The notes beneath the pieces were generated by a model. It saw only the letters and a program-made list of their open reading frames with translations. It ran no database searches and was not told where the DNA came from. DNA of 5,636 bases from a virus: positions 1 through 5,636 of the IMG/VR virus record IMGVR_UViG_3300045988_033297; one strand, written 5' to 3'. A program made the position numbers and the translations under genes. This document shows positions 1-5,636 of the stretch, one piece after another; the stretch's first letter is position 1, and every line of letters begins with the position of its first letter.

Positions 1-99
1 GTTTTTTTTTTTTTGGTAAAATTGAACAAAAAGGAGGCGATATTGTGGACAACCGCTTTTAATCCGAACAGAAAAGAAATCATAAGAGTATACGTAGGA
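1..99. repeat. Terminal direct repeat, copy 1 (assembly overlap of a circular genome)
   Basis: Read by eye, 1-99 (G, T13, GGTAAAATTGAAC...GTATACGTAGGA) is identical to 5538-5636. The offset of 5,537 nt is the unit genome length. Confidence 0.9.
14..22 (+). promoter_or_regulatory. Possible extended -10 promoter element (TGGTAAAAT) for the 43-240 ORF
   Basis: TGGTAAAAT fits TGnTAnAAT and lies directly after the T13 tract, about 9 nt before the AAGGAGG RBS at 31-37. No convincing -35 is present in circular coordinates (TTGTGT at 5534-5539 leaves only a 14-nt spacer). Confidence 0.25.
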
Positions 100-240
100 G
101 TCGTAGAGATATGGGCGATCGAAGAACTGGCACAGGAGTACTTTGTAACGCAGGGACGAGTTATCCGGGACGCTATCAAAGTTGCTCTGAGGCACAAAGA
201 AGAGCTATACGAGCTGTTAAAGATGGATACAGAGATCTGA
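43..240 (+). CDS. Small ribbon-helix-helix-like DNA-binding protein (65 aa, TTG start)
   Basis: The ORF-track frame 13-240 has an in-frame TTG at 43, placed 5 nt after a strong AAGGAGG (31-37). The upstream TTG codons at 13 and 22 lie in or just after the terminator T-run and have no RBS. The sequence KEIIRVYVGVVEIWAIEELAQEYFVTQGRVIRDAIKVALRH fits a beta-strand/helix/turn/helix RHH pattern (ELA...G..IR.AI...L). Confidence 0.5.
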   Translation: MWTTAFNPNRKEIIRVYVGVVEIWAIEELAQEYFVTQGRVIRDAIKVALRHKEELYELLKMDTEI

Positions 241-347
241 AAAAAGCCAGAACACTCGGAGAAGCTGAAGCGATCATCCGTGAGATCTACGAAGCCAAAG
301 CAATCATCAACGAGGAGGAGCTAAAATGGCTAAAAGAGTCAAAATGA
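111..347 (+). CDS. Hypothetical protein (78 aa), possibly overprinted on the 43-240 ORF
   Basis: ATG at 111 follows AGGAG (96-100) with a 10-nt spacer. The C-terminal half (KKARTLGEAEAIIREIYEAKAIINEEELKWLKESK, nt 240-344) looks like a helical protein and covers 241-325, which no other frame explains. The N-terminal half (MGDRRTGTGVLCNAGTSYPGRYQSC) looks poor. Long chance alternative-frame ORFs do occur elsewhere in this genome. Confidence 0.25.
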   Translation: MGDRRTGTGVLCNAGTSYPGRYQSCSEAQRRAIRAVKDGYRDLKKARTLGEAEAIIREIYEAKAIINEEELKWLKESK

Positions 348-445
348 AGCCAAGGAAAGACCAGAAAGTCTTTTCCAACACAGCAAAGAAGACCAAATCC
401 ATCAACATCACGCCAAAAATCATGCGTGGTGGTACGAGACTGTAA
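326..445 (+). CDS. Small highly basic DNA-binding/packaging protein (gokushovirus ORF8-type, phiX174 J analogue), 39 aa
   Basis: Absent from the ORF track because it is too short. ATG at 326 lies 5 nt after GAGGAGGAG (312-320). The product is MAKRVKMKPRKDQKVFSNTAKKTKSINITPKIMRGGTRL, with 13 K/R and 1 acidic residue. The C-terminal MRGGxRL matches the conserved end of these proteins as I recall it. Stop TAA is at 443-445. Confidence 0.75.
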   Translation: MAKRVKMKPRKDQKVFSNTAKKTKSINITPKIMRGGTRL

Positions 446-458
446 AGGAGAAAAAACT

Positions 459-737
459 ATGATCCTGGAATACTATGCCATCAAAGACACCAAAGTCGCC
501 TTTATGAATCCGTTCATGCAGCACAACAAGGCAGAAGCCATCCGATCTTTCCGCAGCGTCCTGGCAGATGAACGCAGCGAGGCAGCCAAAAACCCGGCAG
601 ATTATGAACTCTGGTACGTTGGACAGTGGGACGACGCAACGGGCATCATGATGGGCGGTCAGCCGCAGTTTATCGAAAACGGAGTGGAGGGTTTGAAAAA
701 TGCCGAAAACCGAAGTGCACATCTGGAGTCGATTTGA
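459..737 (+). CDS. VP5: VP5-like nonstructural protein of Gokushovirinae (92 aa)
   Basis: This is ORF-track frame 426-737, but the ATG at 459 has AAGGAG (445-450) 8 nt upstream. The pattern Y.IKD.K...F..PF...N..EAIRSF......E.S....NP.DYELW.VG.WDD.TG matches the VP5 family pattern as I recall it. Confidence 0.8.
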   Translation: MILEYYAIKDTKVAFMNPFMQHNKAEAIRSFRSVLADERSEAAKNPADYELWYVGQWDDATGIMMGGQPQFIENGVEGLKNAENRSAHLESI

Positions 738-1206
738 TCGACCGGACACGATCCCAGCGCCAGAGGGCACCGGCACAGAGCCGGAGTACATGGAAGCGAT
801 CGACGAAAACGGTCACAAAACACTGAAAAAAACCGGAGAAACCGACACTTACGCCATGATCCAGGCGAGTCTGGAAGAAACCAAGATCGAGAACATCATC
901 AAACGAGCCACGCTGGGCGATCCGACCGCACTCACGCAGACAATGGGCGCATATATGGACACCACAGACATGCCAACAAGCCTGGCCGAGATGCAGAACG
1001 CCATTATCACGATCGAAAACGAATTCAACAAGCTGCCTCTCGAAACTCGTCTCAAGTTTAACCAAAGTGCAGAAAAATATATCTCTATGTACGGCTCTGA
1101 AGAATGGGCCAAAATCATGGGATATGAAAAAATTCAGCAAAATGCACAAACAAAAGCCTCAGCTGAGGCAGAGGAGATTGTGCAGAAAGGAGAAAATAAA
1201 GAATGA
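700..1206 (+). CDS. VP3: VP3 internal scaffolding protein (168 aa)
   Basis: GGAGG (686-690) lies 9 nt before the ATG. It sits immediately upstream of VP1. The sequence ...IENIIKR...GAYMDTTDMPTSLAEMQNAIITIENEFNKLPLETRLKFNQSAEKYISM... resembles the gokushovirus scaffold family. It overlaps VP5 by 38 nt and VP1 by ATGA. Confidence 0.85.
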   Translation: MPKTEVHIWSRFDRPDTIPAPEGTGTEPEYMEAIDENGHKTLKKTGETDTYAMIQASLEETKIENIIKRATLGDPTALTQTMGAYMDTTDMPTSLAEMQNAIITIENEFNKLPLETRLKFNQSAEKYISMYGSEEWAKIMGYEKIQQNAQTKASAEAEEIVQKGENKE

Positions 1207-2924
1207 ACCGAAATTCTGAAAGCCATTTCGCACAAATTCCACATGCAGACATCAGCCGATCGAAGTTCTACCGAAACTCAGACCATAAGACAACGTTCAA
1301 CGCCGGGCAGCTCATCCCGATCTACTGCGACGAAGTTCTGCCGGGAGACACACATCAGATGGACATGAGCGCACTGATCCGGATGAGCACACCGATCTTT
1401 CCGACCATGGACAATCTTTACTGCGATTTTTACTTTTTCTTCGTCCCAAACCGTCTCACCTGGATTCACTGGAAAGAATTCATGGGCGAAAACACACAGA
1501 GCTACTGGACACAACCGACTGAATACCAAATACCAGTCATTGACACAACAAAAAACAAAGAATCAAAAACAAATGGAATCGCAAACGGAAGCACCCTCGA
1601 CTACTTCGGAATACCAACCAAAACCAATGGGCTAAAAATCAATGCACTTCCACAAAGAGCATACCAACTGATCTGGAACGAATGGTTCAGAGATCAAAAC
1701 ATACAGCAGCCATGCGAAATCCCATTAGATGAAACAACAGTACATCAAGATGGAACAAGTACAGAAAAACATAACTCTGGACAACCATACAAATACTTCA
1801 TAACAGAATACGTCACATTAGCAAAAAGCGGATATGCATGCTTACCTGTCAACAAATATCACGACTACTTCACCAGCTGCCTGCCGCAACCGCAGAAAGG
1901 CGCAGCCGTTCTGCTGCCGATGAGCGGAAATGCAATCATAGGTTATGGAAACGCCGGAACCGGAAAGCTATACAACAACGAAGACTTTAATACACTCGGC
2001 TGGACCAGCACGGCAACCGGATGGAAACACGACATAAACGGAATGTCAGCAAACACAACAGCAACAAAAAACGACGGAAATATCGCATCAATCGGAACCT
2101 ATCCGACAGGAAGCGGAACAACAGAAGCAGTCAGCCTAATCGCAGACCTGGGCAAAGTCACAGGCGCAACGATCAATCAGCTCCGTCAGGCATTCCAGAT
2201 TCAGAAACTTCTGGAACGGGATGCACGAGGCGGCACAAGATACACCGAAATTCTGAAAGCACACTTCAACGTGACTTCTCCGGACTCTCGCCAGCAGCGA
2301 CCAGAGTATCTTGGTGGCTACAGAATGCCGATCAACATCACGCAGGTGGTACAGAACTCTGAAACCACAGCAACGAGTCCGCAGGGCAACACCGCAGCAT
2401 TTTCAGTAAGTGGCATGAACAAGTCAATGTTCACAAAAAGCTTTACTGAGCACGGATATATCATCGGTCTGGCAGCCGTCAGAACCGAGCATACTTACCA
2501 ACAGGGCATTGAACGCATGTGGAGCCGAAAAGGCAGATATGACTTCTACTGGCCGGAACTTGCGAATATCGGAGAACAAGCAGTGCTCAACAAAGAAATT
2601 TATGCACAGGGCACAGCGGCAGACGAAGAAGCGTTCGGCTACCAGGAGGCCTGGGCAGACTATCGGTACAAGCCGAGCCGAGTGTCAGGCGATATGCGGT
2701 CAAACTACAACCAGACGCTGGACAGCTGGCACTATGCCGACAACTACACAGAGCAACCAAAACTGTCGAGCACCTGGATGATGGAGACCATGAACAACAT
2801 CGACCGGACTCTTGCAGTTCAAAGCAGCGTAGAAGACCAGTTCATTGCAGACTTCTATTTCAAAGCACAGACCACAAGGCCGATGCCTGTCTACAGTGTA
2901 CCGGGCCTTATCGACCATCACTAA
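1203..2924 (+). CDS. VP1: VP1 major capsid protein (Microviridae F-protein family), 573 aa
   Basis: Hallmark N-terminus SHFAQIPHADISRSKF...HKTTFNAGQLIPIYCDEVLPGDT...MSTPIFPTMDNLYCDFYFFFVPNRL. Internal TINQLRQAFQIQKLLERDARGGTRYTEILKAHFNV. C-terminal RPMPVYSVPGLIDHH. Confidence 0.97.
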   Translation: MNRNSESHFAQIPHADISRSKFYRNSDHKTTFNAGQLIPIYCDEVLPGDTHQMDMSALIRMSTPIFPTMDNLYCDFYFFFVPNRLTWIHWKEFMGENTQSYWTQPTEYQIPVIDTTKNKESKTNGIANGSTLDYFGIPTKTNGLKINALPQRAYQLIWNEWFRDQNIQQPCEIPLDETTVHQDGTSTEKHNSGQPYKYFITEYVTLAKSGYACLPVNKYHDYFTSCLPQPQKGAAVLLPMSGNAIIGYGNAGTGKLYNNEDFNTLGWTSTATGWKHDINGMSANTTATKNDGNIASIGTYPTGSGTTEAVSLIADLGKVTGATINQLRQAFQIQKLLERDARGGTRYTEILKAHFNVTSPDSRQQRPEYLGGYRMPINITQVVQNSETTATSPQGNTAAFSVSGMNKSMFTKSFTEHGYIIGLAAVRTEHTYQQGIERMWSRKGRYDFYWPELANIGEQAVLNKEIYAQGTAADEEAFGYQEAWADYRYKPSRVSGDMRSNYNQTLDSWHYADNYTEQPKLSSTWMMETMNNIDRTLAVQSSVEDQFIADFYFKAQTTRPMPVYSVPGLIDHH

Positions 2925-2935
2925 TCGCCACAGAG

Positions 2936-2967
2936 GCGGCTCAGAGGCTCTCTGAGCCGCTTTTCTT
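2936..2967 (+). terminator. Rho-independent terminator after VP1
   Basis: GCGGCTCAGAG (2936-2946) pairs perfectly with CTCTGAGCCGC (2950-2960): an 11-bp GC-rich stem with a 3-nt loop, followed by TTTTCTT (2961-2967). Confidence 0.8.
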
Positions 2968-2984
2968 ATCAGGAGGAAAACTAT

Positions 2985-3821
2985 ATGGGACTCTTAGGAA
3001 CAATCGCCGGAATGGTGCTCCCAAACGTCATAAACTGGGGATTAGGACAAATCTTCGGAGGAGGAGCAAACAGCACAACCCAAGGAGCAAGCCATAGCCA
3101 GGGCGGCAGCACAACACAGAGCCAGAGCGGCACAAACGACCAATTCAATGCACAGCAAGCACAGCTCAACCGAGACTATCAGACCATGAGCCAGGCGATC
3201 CAGGGCAATTACAACATGAAAAGCATGATCATGAATATGGGCTACAACACCATGGGAGCCATCATGCAAGGCGTGTACAACGGAATCAGCCAAAAAGCAG
3301 CCATGAACTACAACTCAGCTGAAGCAGCAGCAAACAGAGCTTGGCAAACCGAAATGAGCAACACAGCCTATCAGAGAGCTGTGCAAGACTTAAAAGCCGC
3401 AGGACTTAACCCGATCTTAGCAGCACTTCACGGAGGAGCCGTCACAGGATCAGGAGCATACGGCAGCTCAGGAGCCAGCACGATCGGAGCACCAAGCACA
3501 AGCGCAGCAAGCATCTCAGCCATGCCAGGCACAGCAACACCAAGCAGCCAATGGAGCTGGTCAAAGGGTTCCAGCTGGAACGAAAGCACGGCCTATAACA
3601 TGGGCGAATCCGTAATGCGATACTATGCCGATCCAAACAACAGCGCAAAAAACCTCAAAGAAACAGGAGACAAAGTTGTAAAAGCCGGCAAAGAAGCAGG
3701 CGAGCAAATCAAAGACGCATACAAATACTCAAGCCCGGCAAACAAAATGAATCGCAACTCAGCAAACATCAACGGCAAAGGATATACAAGCCCAGGCAAC
3801 GGAGCAGGCAGAACAAAGTAA
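2985..3821 (+). CDS. VP2: VP2 DNA pilot / minor capsid protein (278 aa)
   Basis: AGGAGG (2971-2976) lies 8 nt before the ATG. It has a hydrophobic N-terminus (LLGTIAGMVLPNVINWGLGQIFGG), S/T/G/Q/N-rich low-complexity tracts, and the pilot-protein signature AWQTEMSNTAYQRAVQDLKAAGLNPILAA (nt 3339-3425). Confidence 0.9.
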   Translation: MGLLGTIAGMVLPNVINWGLGQIFGGGANSTTQGASHSQGGSTTQSQSGTNDQFNAQQAQLNRDYQTMSQAIQGNYNMKSMIMNMGYNTMGAIMQGVYNGISQKAAMNYNSAEAAANRAWQTEMSNTAYQRAVQDLKAAGLNPILAALHGGAVTGSGAYGSSGASTIGAPSTSAASISAMPGTATPSSQWSWSKGSSWNESTAYNMGESVMRYYADPNNSAKNLKETGDKVVKAGKEAGEQIKDAYKYSSPANKMNRNSANINGKGYTSPGNGAGRTK

Positions 3822-3850
3822 TTGACATACATCAAATAAAAGTGTATAAT
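3822..3850 (+). promoter_or_regulatory. Consensus sigma70/sigmaA promoter P1 (TTGACA-17 nt-TATAAT) for the RHH-rep unit
   Basis: TTGACA at 3822-3827, an exact 17-nt spacer, TATAAT at 3845-3850, with TG immediately 5' of the -10. It starts the nucleotide after the VP2 stop and is nearly identical to the block at 5286-5315. Confidence 0.8.
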
Positions 3851-3871
3851 AACGCATAGGAGGTGTATGTT

Positions 3872-4039
3872 ATGAAATGCACAGTAAGAAGAATCAATGT
3901 GAATCTCACAGAGAAAGAAAACGAAGCTCTCAAACGAACGGCAAAAGCCATGGGTGAAAAAGAAAGCGAGATCGTACGCAAAGCAATCATGAGTTTTACC
4001 AGCAATGGTAAAGATTTACAGGGAAATAATGGTCAGTAA
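3872..4039 (+). CDS. CopG/Arc/MetJ-type ribbon-helix-helix transcriptional regulator (55 aa)
   Basis: Absent from the ORF track. AGGAGG (3858-3863) lies 8 nt before the ATG at 3872; stop TAA is at 4037-4039. The product is MKCTVRRINVNLTEKENEALKRTAKAMGEKESEIVRKAIMSFTSNGKDLQGNNGQ. RINVNL (strand), EKENEALKRTAKAMG (helix A) and EKESEIVRKAIMSF (helix B) form a textbook RHH pattern. Confidence 0.75.
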   Translation: MKCTVRRINVNLTEKENEALKRTAKAMGEKESEIVRKAIMSFTSNGKDLQGNNGQ

Positions 4040-4065
4040 ATAGGAACCGTTCGCGGCATCGCTGT

Positions 4066-4107
4066 CACCTAGCCCCCTTACATCAAGTAGGGCTCGGGGG
4101 CTAGGTG
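4066..4107 (+). other. Perfect 12-bp GC-rich stem-loop between the RHH gene and rep (candidate origin or regulatory hairpin)
   Basis: CACCTAGCCCCC (4066-4077) is the exact reverse complement of GGGGGCTAGGTG (4096-4107). The 18-nt loop TTACATCAAGTAGGGCTC contains TACATCAA (4079-4086). There is no T-tract afterwards, so it is not a canonical terminator. The rep RBS begins 4 nt downstream. Confidence 0.7.
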
Positions 4108-4120
4108 CCAGGGGGAGGAG

Positions 4121-5161
4121 GTGAAGACCGATTTGGGCTGTAAATTTCCAATTGTGCAAGACACAAAAACAGGCAGATTTTTGAAAGAGTACGAGGGAAA
4201 ACTTTACTACAAGTGGAACGACTATGACGGTAAATCGACAAACGCAATCATCACAGATGAACGCTACCGTCTCATACCGTGCGGTAGGTGTACCGAGTGC
4301 CGATTAGCGTACTCGAGAGAGTGGGCAAACCGCTGTGTACTCGAATCACTACTCTACAAGTCGAACTGGTTCATAACACTGACTTACAACCCTGAGCAGA
4401 TTCCAACACTAAGGCTCGATACAGGTGAACTGTACAGAGGAGGTGTGCAAGAAGTACAAAATGGTAAAGTGTTAGTGTCTAACACACTGTTCCATGACGA
4501 TGTGCAAAAATTCCTCAAAAAACTGAGATTCCACCTCGCAAAGGCTGGAGAACCAGAAATCCGATACTACATGTGCGGAGAGTATGGCAGCACAACACAA
4601 CGGCCACACTACCACATGATCGTCTACAATCTGAATGTGCCTGATCTTGAGTTCTACAAGCTTAACGAACTACATCAACCTTACTTTCAAAGCGAATGGC
4701 TTGAAAAAATGTGGGGACATGGGTTTGTAACACTCGGAGAAGTAAACTGGAATACCTGCGCATACGTGGCAAGGTACATCATGAAAAAAGTGAAAGGAGA
4801 TAAAGCAGAAGAATTTTATAAAAGCATCGGAAAAACACCAGAATATACAAGAATGAGTTTAAAACCAGGAATAGGAGCAAAATACTATGAACTGAATAAA
4901 GAACAAATCTATAAATTTGATCAAATCATCATACCAGGAAAACAAGCAAAAAAAGTACAGCCATCAAAATATTTCGACAAGCTGTATGATATAGACAATC
5001 CAGAAAGGATGCAGGAAATCAAAAAAGCACGTGAAAAAAATGCACGCCTTGCTCAGCAGCTCAAATTAAGCAAAACCACAAAGGAACTGTGGGAACAGCT
5101 TAAAATAGAGCACGAAGCCAAACAAGACGCATACAAAAAACTTATAAGACCGCTAGAATAG
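4121..5161 (+). CDS. VP4: VP4 replication initiator, HUH rolling-circle endonuclease (346 aa from GTG 4121; alternative TTG start at 4133)
   Basis: RCR motif 1 is FITLTY (aa 84-89). HUH motif 2 is RPHYHMIVY (nt 4601-4627). Motif 3 is AYVARYIMKK with Tyr215 and Tyr219 (nt 4763-4777). A Cys cluster CGRCTEC lies at aa 54-60. The G-rich RBS GGGGGAGGAGG (4111-4121) abuts the GTG. A TTG at 4133 would give MGCKFP..., resembling the typical M.C..P N-terminus of VP4. Confidence 0.93.
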   Translation: MKTDLGCKFPIVQDTKTGRFLKEYEGKLYYKWNDYDGKSTNAIITDERYRLIPCGRCTECRLAYSREWANRCVLESLLYKSNWFITLTYNPEQIPTLRLDTGELYRGGVQEVQNGKVLVSNTLFHDDVQKFLKKLRFHLAKAGEPEIRYYMCGEYGSTTQRPHYHMIVYNLNVPDLEFYKLNELHQPYFQSEWLEKMWGHGFVTLGEVNWNTCAYVARYIMKKVKGDKAEEFYKSIGKTPEYTRMSLKPGIGAKYYELNKEQIYKFDQIIIPGKQAKKVQPSKYFDKLYDIDNPERMQEIKKAREKNARLAQQLKLSKTTKELWEQLKIEHEAKQDAYKKLIRPLE

Positions 5162-5168
5162 CTGAATA

Positions 5169-5212
5169 AGGGCGCAACACGGAATCTGACCTCCACGTTG
5201 CGCCCTGCTTTT
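5169..5212 (+). terminator. Probable terminator after rep (10-bp stem, large loop, short T-tract)
   Basis: AGGGCGCAAC (5169-5178) pairs with GTTGCGCCCT (5197-5206). The loop is 18 nt, followed by GCTTTT (5207-5212). The large loop and short T-run lower confidence. Confidence 0.45.
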
Positions 5213-5214
5213 CA

Positions 5215-5231
5215 TCGGCATCCAATGCCGA
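5215..5231 (+). other. Small perfect hairpin TCGGCAT-CCA-ATGCCGA
   Basis: 7-bp stem (5215-5221 with 5225-5231) and a 3-nt loop. It is nested inside an alternative pairing GCCCTGC (5202-5208) with GCAGGGC (5234-5240). Confidence 0.6.
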
Positions 5232-5246
5232 GCGCAGGGCCTACAG

Positions 5247-5263
5247 ATAAAATAGCATAAAAT
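5247..5263 (+). repeat. Tandem ATAAAAT-AGC-ATAAAAT (10-nt phase), UP-element-like A/T block upstream of P2
   Basis: ATAAAAT occurs at 5247-5253 and 5257-5263, one helical turn apart, 23-39 nt upstream of the -35 box at 5286. Confidence 0.4.
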
Positions 5264-5285
5264 GATGTATATTTCAAGAAAACAG

Positions 5286-5314
5286 TTGACATACATCAAA
5301 TCTAGATGTATAAT
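5286..5314 (+). promoter_or_regulatory. Consensus sigma70/sigmaA promoter P2 (TTGACA-17 nt-TATAAT) for the acidic small ORF
   Basis: TTGACA at 5286-5291, a 17-nt spacer, TATAAT at 5309-5314. The perfect 7-nt inverted repeat ATACATC (5291-5297) / GATGTAT (5305-5311) bridges the -35 and -10 boxes. Confidence 0.8.
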
Positions 5315-5340
5315 AGAATCAGAAAGAAAGGAGAATAACA

Positions 5341-5502
5341 ATGAAAAGTTACTATGAAGAACATGTAAAAGATTGTGCAGCAGCTCTTTACGACGGCGGA
5401 TGGAGAAGCACAGACAGAAACGAAATACAAAAAGAATACAACATGGACGATGAGTGGACAGATGCAATCTGCGAAGAACTAAAAAAATACGAACAACAAT
5501 AA
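5341..5502 (+). CDS. Acidic small protein of unknown function (53 aa)
   Basis: Absent from the ORF track. AAGGAG (5328-5333) lies 7 nt before the ATG at 5341; stop TAA is at 5500-5502. The product is MKSYYEEHVKDCAAALYDGGWRSTDRNEIQKEYNMDDEWTDAICEELKKYEQQ, with 14 D/E versus 7 K/R. It is flanked by its own consensus promoter and a strong terminator. Confidence 0.65.
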   Translation: MKSYYEEHVKDCAAALYDGGWRSTDRNEIQKEYNMDDEWTDAICEELKKYEQQ

Positions 5503-5511
5503 GAATACTAC

Positions 5512-5551
5512 AAAACACAGGACAAAAAAAGTCTTGTGTTTTTTTTTTTTT
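5512..5551 (+). terminator. Strong rho-independent terminator (stem, A7 loop, T13 tail)
   Basis: CACAGGAC (5516-5523) pairs with GTCTTGTG (5531-5538): 8 bp with one G-U. The loop is A7 (5524-5530). The flanking A-run (5512-5515) can extend the stem. T13 lies at 5539-5551 and is duplicated at 2-14. Confidence 0.85.
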
Positions 5552-5636
5552 GGTAAAATTGAACAAAAAGGAGGCGATATTGTGGACAACCGCTTTTAAT
5601 CCGAACAGAAAAGAAATCATAAGAGTATACGTAGGA
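5538..5636. repeat. Terminal direct repeat, copy 2 (same sequence as 1-99)
   Basis: Identical to 1-99 by eye. It contains a duplicate of the RBS and the first 19 codons of the 43-240 ORF (5580-5636), which is an artefact of linearisation and not a second gene. Confidence 0.9.

Follow-up and report, generated by a model that had tools for sequence, protein, structure and literature searches.

In the virus record IMGVR_UViG_3300045988_033297 (IMG/VR; positions 1 to 5,636, this whole 5,636-nucleotide stretch being called the window below), heptamers of the form G(A/G)TGTAT are concentrated at two promoters, P1 and P2, and we favour, with moderate confidence, the reading that they are operators of a phage-encoded ribbon-helix-helix (RHH) autorepressor. 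The putative repressor, RHH2, is the predicted product of a 55-aa open reading frame (ORF) and would control the rolling-circle replication initiator Rep together with a small accessory gene. The virus is a gokushovirus-type member of Microviridae; its relatives are referred to by L numbers or GenBank accessions. The features on which the argument turns are the following.

3822–3850, + strand: promoter P1, with TTGACA at 3822–3827 and TATAAT at 3845–3850, upstream of the RHH2 gene in all clade lineages
3827–3833, − strand: P1 half-site 1, ATACATC, the exact complement of GATGTAT, abutting or overlapping the −35 box
3841–3847, + strand: P1 half-site 2, AGTGTAT (5/7 match), overlapping the −10 box
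3862–3868, + strand: P1 site 3, GGTGTAT, covering the 55-aa ORF's ribosome-binding site at about +6 to +12 relative to the inferred transcription start
3872–4039, + strand: RHH2, 55-aa ORF, candidate repressor gene
4062–4111, + strand: conserved 16-bp stem-loop between the RHH2 gene and Rep (DNA fold −16.4 kcal/mol, z −3.75)
4121–5161, + strand: VP4 Rep, rolling-circle replication initiator (Pfam REP_ORF2-G2P, 3e-21; phrog_942, 1e-108), downstream of the RHH2 gene
5264–5270, + strand: upstream P2 GATGTAT, an exact match of doubtful function
5286–5314, + strand: promoter P2, with TTGACA at 5286–5291 and TATAAT at 5309–5314, driving the small acidic ORF
5291–5311, no strand: perfect 21-bp palindrome of P2, ATACATC-N7-GATGTAT, with half-sites at 5291–5297 and 5305–5311, spanning the promoter spacer
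5341–5502, + strand: 53-aa acidic ORF, driven by P2
5512–5550, + strand: intrinsic terminator (12-bp stem plus T13), closing the P2 unit

Exact GATGTAT occurs four times on the two strands of the window, each time within the P1 or P2 promoter region (3827–3833 on the − strand, 5264–5270 on the +, 5291–5297 on the − and 5305–5311 on the +), against a chance expectation of 0.59; four copies were reached in 0 of 200 dinucleotide-preserving shuffles. The relaxed word GRTGTAT has six matches where 1.03 are expected (shuffle maximum, three), and five of the six lie within the two promoter regions. P1 and P2 are the sole promoters of the genome that match the sigma-70 consensus at 12/12 positions, both have 17-nt spacers, and they form a 40-nt direct repeat with 80% identity. 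In both, ATACATC begins on the final A of the −35 box, the second heptamer (AGTGTAT in P1, GATGTAT in P2) closes on the TAT of the −10 box, and the half-site centres lie 14 bp apart. The original prediction, made from the sequence alone, had listed these heptamers at the two promoters, including the degenerate AGTGTAT and GGTGTAT, had described the inner P2 pair as a perfect 7-nt inverted repeat with a 7-nt spacer over the −35 and −10 boxes, and had given the same 14-nt centre-to-centre spacing for P1 and P2; it was accurate in all of this. A 7-bp register was also considered, into which the three P1 sites fit at 14 and 21 bp, but the upstream P2 site lies at a distance of 27 bp and the register is not relied on. 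Around this upstream copy there is a weak, divergent promoter-like site on the minus strand (5277–5249; TTGAAA, 17-nt spacer, TATTTT, with TG), in which the heptamer at 5264–5270 falls just downstream of the −35 box; its 9/12 matches are within chance, and it would yield RNA antisense to the 3′ end of Rep.

P1 was aligned across seven lineages of the window's clade, with the more distant L070 outside the alignment. The TACATC after the −35 box is invariant in all seven, followed by a variable spacer, and L067 keeps it although its −35 box reads TTGAAA. The TG preceding the −10 box is likewise invariant, as is the TGTAT following the Shine-Dalgarno (AGGAGG), after which the next 3 nt vary; the second half-site takes the form GGTGTAT, GGTGTAG, GGTGTAC or GATGTAT in relatives. 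Mean pairwise identity is 0.59 in the 7-nt spacer, 0.44 in the 6 nt past the −10 box and 0.40 in the 3 nt ahead of the ATG. When the half-site columns beyond the −35, −10 and Shine-Dalgarno elements are counted, 13 of 15 are invariant, versus 2 of 16 neutral spacer and flank columns (Fisher p = 5e-5). The degenerate P1 of the window is a peculiarity of its lineage, because P1 is a perfect ATACATC-N7-GATGTAT in L064, L067 and L085, and in L070. The proposal that a perfect operator at P2 and a weaker one at P1 form a design for differential repression is therefore not borne out by conservation: P1 is perfect in these four genomes, and the P2 module is absent or broken in most lineages.

Across a wider set of relatives, the heptamers accompany the RHH2 gene. 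In 13 RHH2-bearing genomes, RRTGTAx abuts the −10 box in 17 of 18 near-consensus promoters, mostly with a second heptamer beside the −35 box. This second copy is inverted (ATACATC, 14 bp) in the window's clade, L070 and L085, and direct (GATGTAT, AGTGTAT or GATGTAG; 13 bp) in P2 of L071, the post-Rep promoters of L074 and L075, and P1 of L077, so that both orientations are found at equivalent promoter positions. The direct pairs fit independent recognition of each heptamer, and not a hairpin or a single two-fold symmetric dimer. L072 and L077 have further copies, including reverse-oriented GTACACC, which in L072 lies over the ribosome-binding site. All RHH2-bearing relatives keep the order P1, RHH2 gene, Rep, in the same orientation. 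Seven relatives that do not carry RHH2 (L084, MG945746, MG945157, PQ006683, MG945135, KT264798 and OM869663) have TGnTAnAAT promoters or no consensus promoter, and none has promoter heptamers; in L084 the stem-loop ahead of Rep is kept and the RHH2 gene and P1 are both absent.

The RHH2 protein models as a ribbon-helix-helix fold, and the sequence evidence, weak as it is, is consistent with this. Its AF2 model, built from a 4-sequence alignment (pLDDT 77.7), has strands at residues 2–5 and 8–11 and helices at 14–27 and 31–44. The Foldseek PDB matches listed for it are all RHH or related proteins (TacA, CopG, VapB, ParG, PutA, Arc), with TM up to 0.8, and CopG structures are among the best of them (TM 0.74–0.76). 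At the sequence level, RHH2 matches the PHROG "transcriptional repressor" family phrog_876 at 5.4e-5 and scores 21.4 against DUF6290 (cut-off 27), and 4 of 13 RHH2 homologues have matches to RHH_1 (best E, 6.4e-6). These 13 homologues share the strand pattern x-R-x-N-x-N-L-T, in which R7, N9, N11, L12 and T13 are invariant. Alternate strand residues of RHH proteins point to the DNA, and the invariant R7, N9, N11 and T13 would fit a DNA-reading head, matching the conserved TGTA core of the heptamers. The model and the Foldseek matches support the earlier suggestion that the 3872–4039 product is RHH-like, and across genomes its gene tracks the heptamers. A survey of 5.8 billion proteins placed RHH2 in only four clusters at 90% identity, every one on microvirus-sized contigs, and a profile search of 1.84 billion representative proteins gave 17 matches. 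By tblastn, unannotated homologues were found in the GenBank pig and human gut gokushoviruses MG945186, MG945797, MG945569, KX513873, MT135351 and MG945373. Nothing useful came from GTDB genomes searched with the RHH2 profile or from a sequence search of the PDB.

If the heptamers are RHH2 operators, one RHH2 dimer would sit on each heptamer and contact it through its beta-ribbon. The site pair brackets the 17-nt promoter spacer, one site touching the −35 box and the other lying over the start of the −10 box, and because of this position a bound protein would exclude RNA polymerase. At P1, protein on the third site would also cover the start of the transcribed region, with the ribosome-binding site. 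P1 drives the RHH2 gene and probably Rep as well, and the transcript would run through the RHH2 gene, the conserved stem-loop and then Rep; no T-tract lies behind the stem-loop. Negative autoregulation of this kind would hold down the level of the rolling-circle initiator, the part that CopG plays towards RepB in plasmid pMV158, and RHH2 would also repress P2 and hence the acidic accessory ORF.

One of the closest known counterparts is CopG, a 45-aa RHH repressor that covers the −35 and −10 boxes of the Pcr promoter of pMV158 and limits the rolling-circle initiator RepB (PMC2724298). As in that plasmid, a tiny RHH gene lies directly upstream of a rolling-circle initiator, behind a single strong sigma-70 promoter, and the putative operator overlaps the −35 and −10 boxes by its position. 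CopG itself, however, recognizes 13 bp of pseudosymmetric DNA in which two inverted TGCA boxes are separated by 5 bp (PMC2724298), whereas the window has no TGCA boxes and its sites are 7 bp long and 13–14 bp apart, with an additional copy at the ribosome-binding site. An antisense RNA partner was not found in the phage, the replicon is viral and not a plasmid, and sequence homology is not detectable beyond the fold. Arc and Mnt of phage P22 offer another parallel, being phage-encoded, autoregulating RHH repressors with a 21-bp operator both between and over the promoter hexamers. Arc, however, recognizes TAGA boxes, as dimers about 11 bp apart, in a temperate double-stranded DNA phage where the target is an antirepressor; in the phage studied here both the words and the spacing are different, and the target would be the replication gene of a single-stranded DNA (ssDNA) phage. 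The boxes of Arc, like those of CopG, are 4 bp long and 5 bp apart (PMC2724298). The omega protein of pSM19035 (ParB-pSM) binds contiguous WATCACW heptads, 7–10 in a row and in either orientation (PMC9499535). The proposed reading would share with it one RHH dimer per non-palindromic 7-bp heptad, and the occurrence of both orientations and the overlap with promoters resemble omega, but the heptamers of the window's group are a different word and are parted by 6–7 non-conserved bp. The geometry thus differs from every documented RHH system compared (Arc, CopG and omega). As a type, an RHH autorepressor with its operator would be nothing unusual; what is unreported is the setting, a conserved and unannotated clade of gut Microviridae in which the module would control the replication initiator.

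Several points weigh against assigning the heptamers to RHH2. That RHH2 binds and represses is a prediction from sequence and a structural model. The Foldseek E-values are weak (at least 0.49), as expected for 55 residues, and the score of RHH2 against Pfam RHH_1 (15.8 bits) is below the curated cut-off of 20.5. The conservation statistics are rough because the lineages are related, and the co-occurrence of P1 with RHH2 is partly trivial because P1 is the RHH2 gene's own promoter. A spacing of 14 bp is unlike that of Arc or CopG and unlike the contiguous heptads of omega. In addition, the exact palindrome lies upstream of PadR genes in about half of its distinct metagenomic occurrences, and a host PadR could bind it.

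This last point amounts to another explanation, in which the 21-bp palindrome is the operator of a host PadR-family winged-helix repressor, acting alone or jointly with RHH2; the phage promoters would have copied a host operator, which would place Rep and the accessory gene under a host sensor of stress or toxins. When metagenomes were scanned for TTGACATACATC-N7-GATGTAT, 63 stretches matched; 47 differ from one another, and 24 of these 47 lie directly upstream of PadR genes (about 105–121 aa; Pfam PF03551, E 1e-19 to 1e-25 in four genes tested). Over 29 nt, the soil PadR locus L113 and P1 of the microvirus L085 have the same sequence. TACA-N11-TGTA has the geometry of TACT-N11-12-AGTA, the 21-bp operator recognized by C. 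difficile PadR1 (PMC5050560), and a 14-bp half-site spacing is better suited to one winged-helix dimer than to known RHH arrays. From the occurrence ahead of PadR genes, the identity of L113 with L085 and the PadR1-like geometry, we regard binding by a host PadR as a real possibility, one that the original RHH-only frame had missed: bacteria commonly have this palindrome as a PadR operator. Set beside the PadR-s2 operators (C. difficile PadR1 and LmrR; PMC5050560, PMC3506622), the phage promoters share an identical 21-bp palindrome in the same place of a TTGACA/TATAAT promoter, as found ahead of many PadR genes, but the arms are 7 nt and not 8, the relatives have direct repeats and isolated heptamers, and the phage has no padR gene. 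In the window, the palindrome itself is present at P2 and degenerate at P1. An eighth complementary arm base is found in 21 of 24 PadR operators versus 2 of 5 phage operators (p = 0.046), and in four phage lineages the right arm drifts to GGTGTAx or AGTGTAT. The direct-repeat heptamers of distant RHH2 phages are unfit for a two-fold symmetric dimer, these phages have extra single heptamers over a ribosome-binding site, and it is the presence of the RHH2 gene, not the palindrome, that the heptamers follow; moreover, the palindrome was not found in the prophage-bearing host contigs examined. Overall, we consider a host PadR operator unlikely as the explanation of the palindrome, though one to be taken seriously. 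The RHH2 and PadR readings are compatible with each other, and a combined scheme, with the phage promoters as functional copies of a host PadR operator and RHH2 jointly timing replication and accessory expression with a host repressor that senses small molecules or stress, strikes us as rather improbable.

The PadR-type palindrome also deserves a description in its own right. The extended form ATACATC(G/A)-N5-(C/T)GATGTAT lies exactly between TTGACA and TATAAT at loci L097–L159, on soil, peat, rumen and gut contigs, and is apparently the autoregulatory operator of a widespread small-PadR subfamily; in the papers searched, this operator word is undescribed in connection with PadR. Palindromes of this type also precede an RHH gene at L116, another at L146 and a Phd antitoxin gene at L130. 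Gokushovirus prophages are present in two large bacterial contigs (L080, 3375–8017; L082, 3308–8497; Rep 48% identical), next to serS and a tyrosine recombinase gene, with SpoIVB peptidase, LexA and PadR-domain genes in their neighbourhoods; the host is probably a spore-forming Firmicute. Both prophages are without RHH2, and L082 has instead an opposite-strand HTH_3 repressor gene 3′ of Rep.

It could also be argued that no dedicated regulator is involved, P1 and P2 being two copies of one strong promoter whose shared words are intrinsic or inherited. The 40-nt direct repeat described above would agree with this, symmetry plus the TAT of the −10 box is enough to account for the palindrome's outer ATA and TAT, and TTGACATACATC-N9-TGTATAAT promoters are also found in unrelated phages. 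The half-site bases, however, are fixed while the spacers diverge, in lineages down to 60% Rep identity; relatives that lack RHH2 have different, TGn-type promoters; and a TG abutting TATAAT is not in the extended −10 register. A generic promoter feature was tried and rejected: in IMG/VR, permuted patterns were roughly equal in frequency to the real one, with 5 and 6 matches versus 13 stretches in about seven sequence families, the matches outside microviruses being unrelated phages, and on the strength of these controls TACATC is not a general promoter feature. An explanation by promoter copies without a regulator is, in our judgement, very improbable. We give hardly any credence to the remaining options, that some other protein of the phage (the 43–240 product, the 78-aa ORF product or Rep) occupies the sites, or that they act as an ssDNA hairpin. 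For Rep, an 8-mer, TACATCAA, is shared by P1, P2 and the loop of the 4062–4111 stem-loop, a candidate Rep origin, but relatives and prophages in which both RHH2 and the promoter heptamers are missing also keep this loop motif, which is thus independent of the heptamers; as a copied iteron or origin it was rejected, and the motif is part of another system, probably that of Rep. The P2 arms are able to pair, but the P2 fold is weak at −3.8 kcal/mol (z −1.59; 17 of 200 shuffles fold as well), P1 has none, and the direct repeats of relatives cannot fold. As to the 43–240 product, which the original prediction had named as a second RHH candidate, it has no Pfam or NCBIfam match, its single-sequence AF2 model is a low-confidence one of two long helices (pTM 0.37), hhalign against the RHH2 family gives 20% probability, its PDB match to the RHH protein ORF56 is weak (E 0.64), and its frame has no conserved canonical start. 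Because L064 lacks 43–347 yet keeps both perfect operators, RHH2 is left as the one candidate DNA-binding protein of the phage that every lineage shares, and the likeliest binder is RHH2 alone, not both candidates. What stands of the RHH operator proposal is therefore that the sites are non-random, conserved, at polymerase-blocking positions and tracking the 3872–4039 gene; a role for the 43–240 product as a binder is neither supported nor needed.

At 4062–4111, the stem-loop is a candidate for the origin of replication or for the site nicked by Rep. It shows compensatory changes at 8 of 14 pairs in 10 lineages and has a conserved loop core, ACATCAAG. It is also present in RHH2-less relatives and in prophages, with the loop sequence on the opposite strand in L082, and it ends 3–4 nt short of the Rep ribosome-binding site.

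In L064 the arms of P2 are identical, the spacer differs (GCATTTA) and a homologue of the small ORF is present. In L001, the closest relative (Rep 94% identical), a deletion runs from just past TTGACATACATCAAAT into the 53-aa ORF (L001 38–70 versus window 5286–5445) and takes out 34 codons of the ORF together with the −10 box and ribosome-binding site, so that P2 and the 53-aa ORF are dispensable. The module is wholly absent in L060, L067 and L069, and the upstream GATGTAT at 5264–5270 is retained only in L001 and replaced in L064. P2-like promoters with heptamers are nevertheless found in L071, L074 and L075, and since the ORF driven by the post-Rep promoter of L075 opens with MKSYYEEH, the first eight residues of the window's 53-aa ORF, P2 and the small ORF would be an old accessory module of the group. 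The 53-aa ORF is acidic in composition (14 D+E versus 7 K+R) and gave no match in family searches.

The first 99 nt of the window are identical to its last 99 nt, and because of this terminal redundancy we take the window to be a complete genome, circular and 5537 nt long, with every real gene on the + strand. The gokushovirus-type gene set (VP1 capsid, VP2 pilot, VP3 scaffold, VP4 Rep and VP5 on a circle of about 5.5 kb) is present, with Pfam matches to Phage_F (6.8e-172), Chlamy_scaf (3.4e-33) and Phage_ORF5 (4.1e-24) besides that of Rep, and a PHROG match for the pilot protein (1.4e-67). The features outside the P1–P2 segment are:

43–347, + strand: region with overlapping small ORFs
326–445, + strand: 39-aa basic protein
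459–737, + strand: VP5
700–1206, + strand: VP3 scaffold
1203–2924, + strand: VP1 capsid
2985–3821, + strand: VP2 pilot

Near-identical and related genomes come from human gut metagenomes; DNA-level relatives in INPHARED cover at most 29% of the genome, and neither JGI metagenomes searched with Rep nor an Rfam search returned anything useful. The true start of Rep is probably TTG 4133, not GTG 4121: AGGAGGTG lies 10 nt ahead of it, and the equivalent position is ATG in L085 and TTG in L070 and L072. Right behind the T13 tract of the terminator, TGGTAAAATTG at 14–24 (= 5551–5561) is of the extended −10 type (TGnTAAAAT), which is kept in L060, L064, L067, L069 and L072; L001 has TAGTAAAAT there. 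This element is likely the promoter of the structural genes and, carrying no heptamers, would probably be outside heptamer-linked control. Two strong hairpins lie 3′ of the Rep stop (5169–5206 and 5214–5232; joint z −4.14) and are retained in relatives with differing stem sequences; a terminator and a complementary-strand origin are both possibilities.

The region at 43–347 is of interest for its coding arrangement. A mini-ORF of 5 codons at 45–62 (GTG GAC AAC CGC TTT TAA, MDNRF*) follows a strong ribosome-binding site; its start (GTG or ATG) is kept in relatives, and its changes are synonymous only (GAT AAT CGT TTT TAG in L060 and L069). The supposed start of the 43–240 frame is TTG, ATA or CTG, and purifying selection acts on that frame from about 60 to 174. 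The T-TTT-TAA/TAG junction would permit a +1 slip from the mini-ORF into the 43–240 frame, and L067 has instead an ATG 2 nt past the mini-ORF stop, making the pair a candidate for programmed +1 frameshifting or termination-reinitiation. The gene-finder call in this region is the 78-aa ORF at 111–347, which overlaps 43–240 and has a conserved AGGAG and ATG 111. Its C-terminal part (241–325) is under purifying selection (25 synonymous versus 16 non-synonymous changes), whereas the N-terminal overlap is not (3 versus 29), and 175–240 is near-invariant in DNA, as dual coding predicts.

To our knowledge, expression control in Microviridae such as phiX174 has been described only in terms of fixed promoter and terminator strengths, and we know of no transcriptional regulation attributed to the family. 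Our literature searches found no RHH regulator or repressor-operator circuit in Microviridae. A clade of gokushoviruses from human and animal guts conserves the cassette described here, which is unannotated in the GenBank records examined. If the heptamers are indeed RHH2 operators, some microviruses would throttle their own replication initiator in the manner of rolling-circle plasmids, and phages of this clade would carry regulated accessory genes; a 55-aa protein and a 21-bp site would also make a simple protein-DNA pair. Given the overlap with PadR operators, cross-talk with regulators of the host is also conceivable, and joint control by a host PadR and RHH2, if true, would give Microviridae an environment-sensing switch, associated with a carrier or quiescent state.

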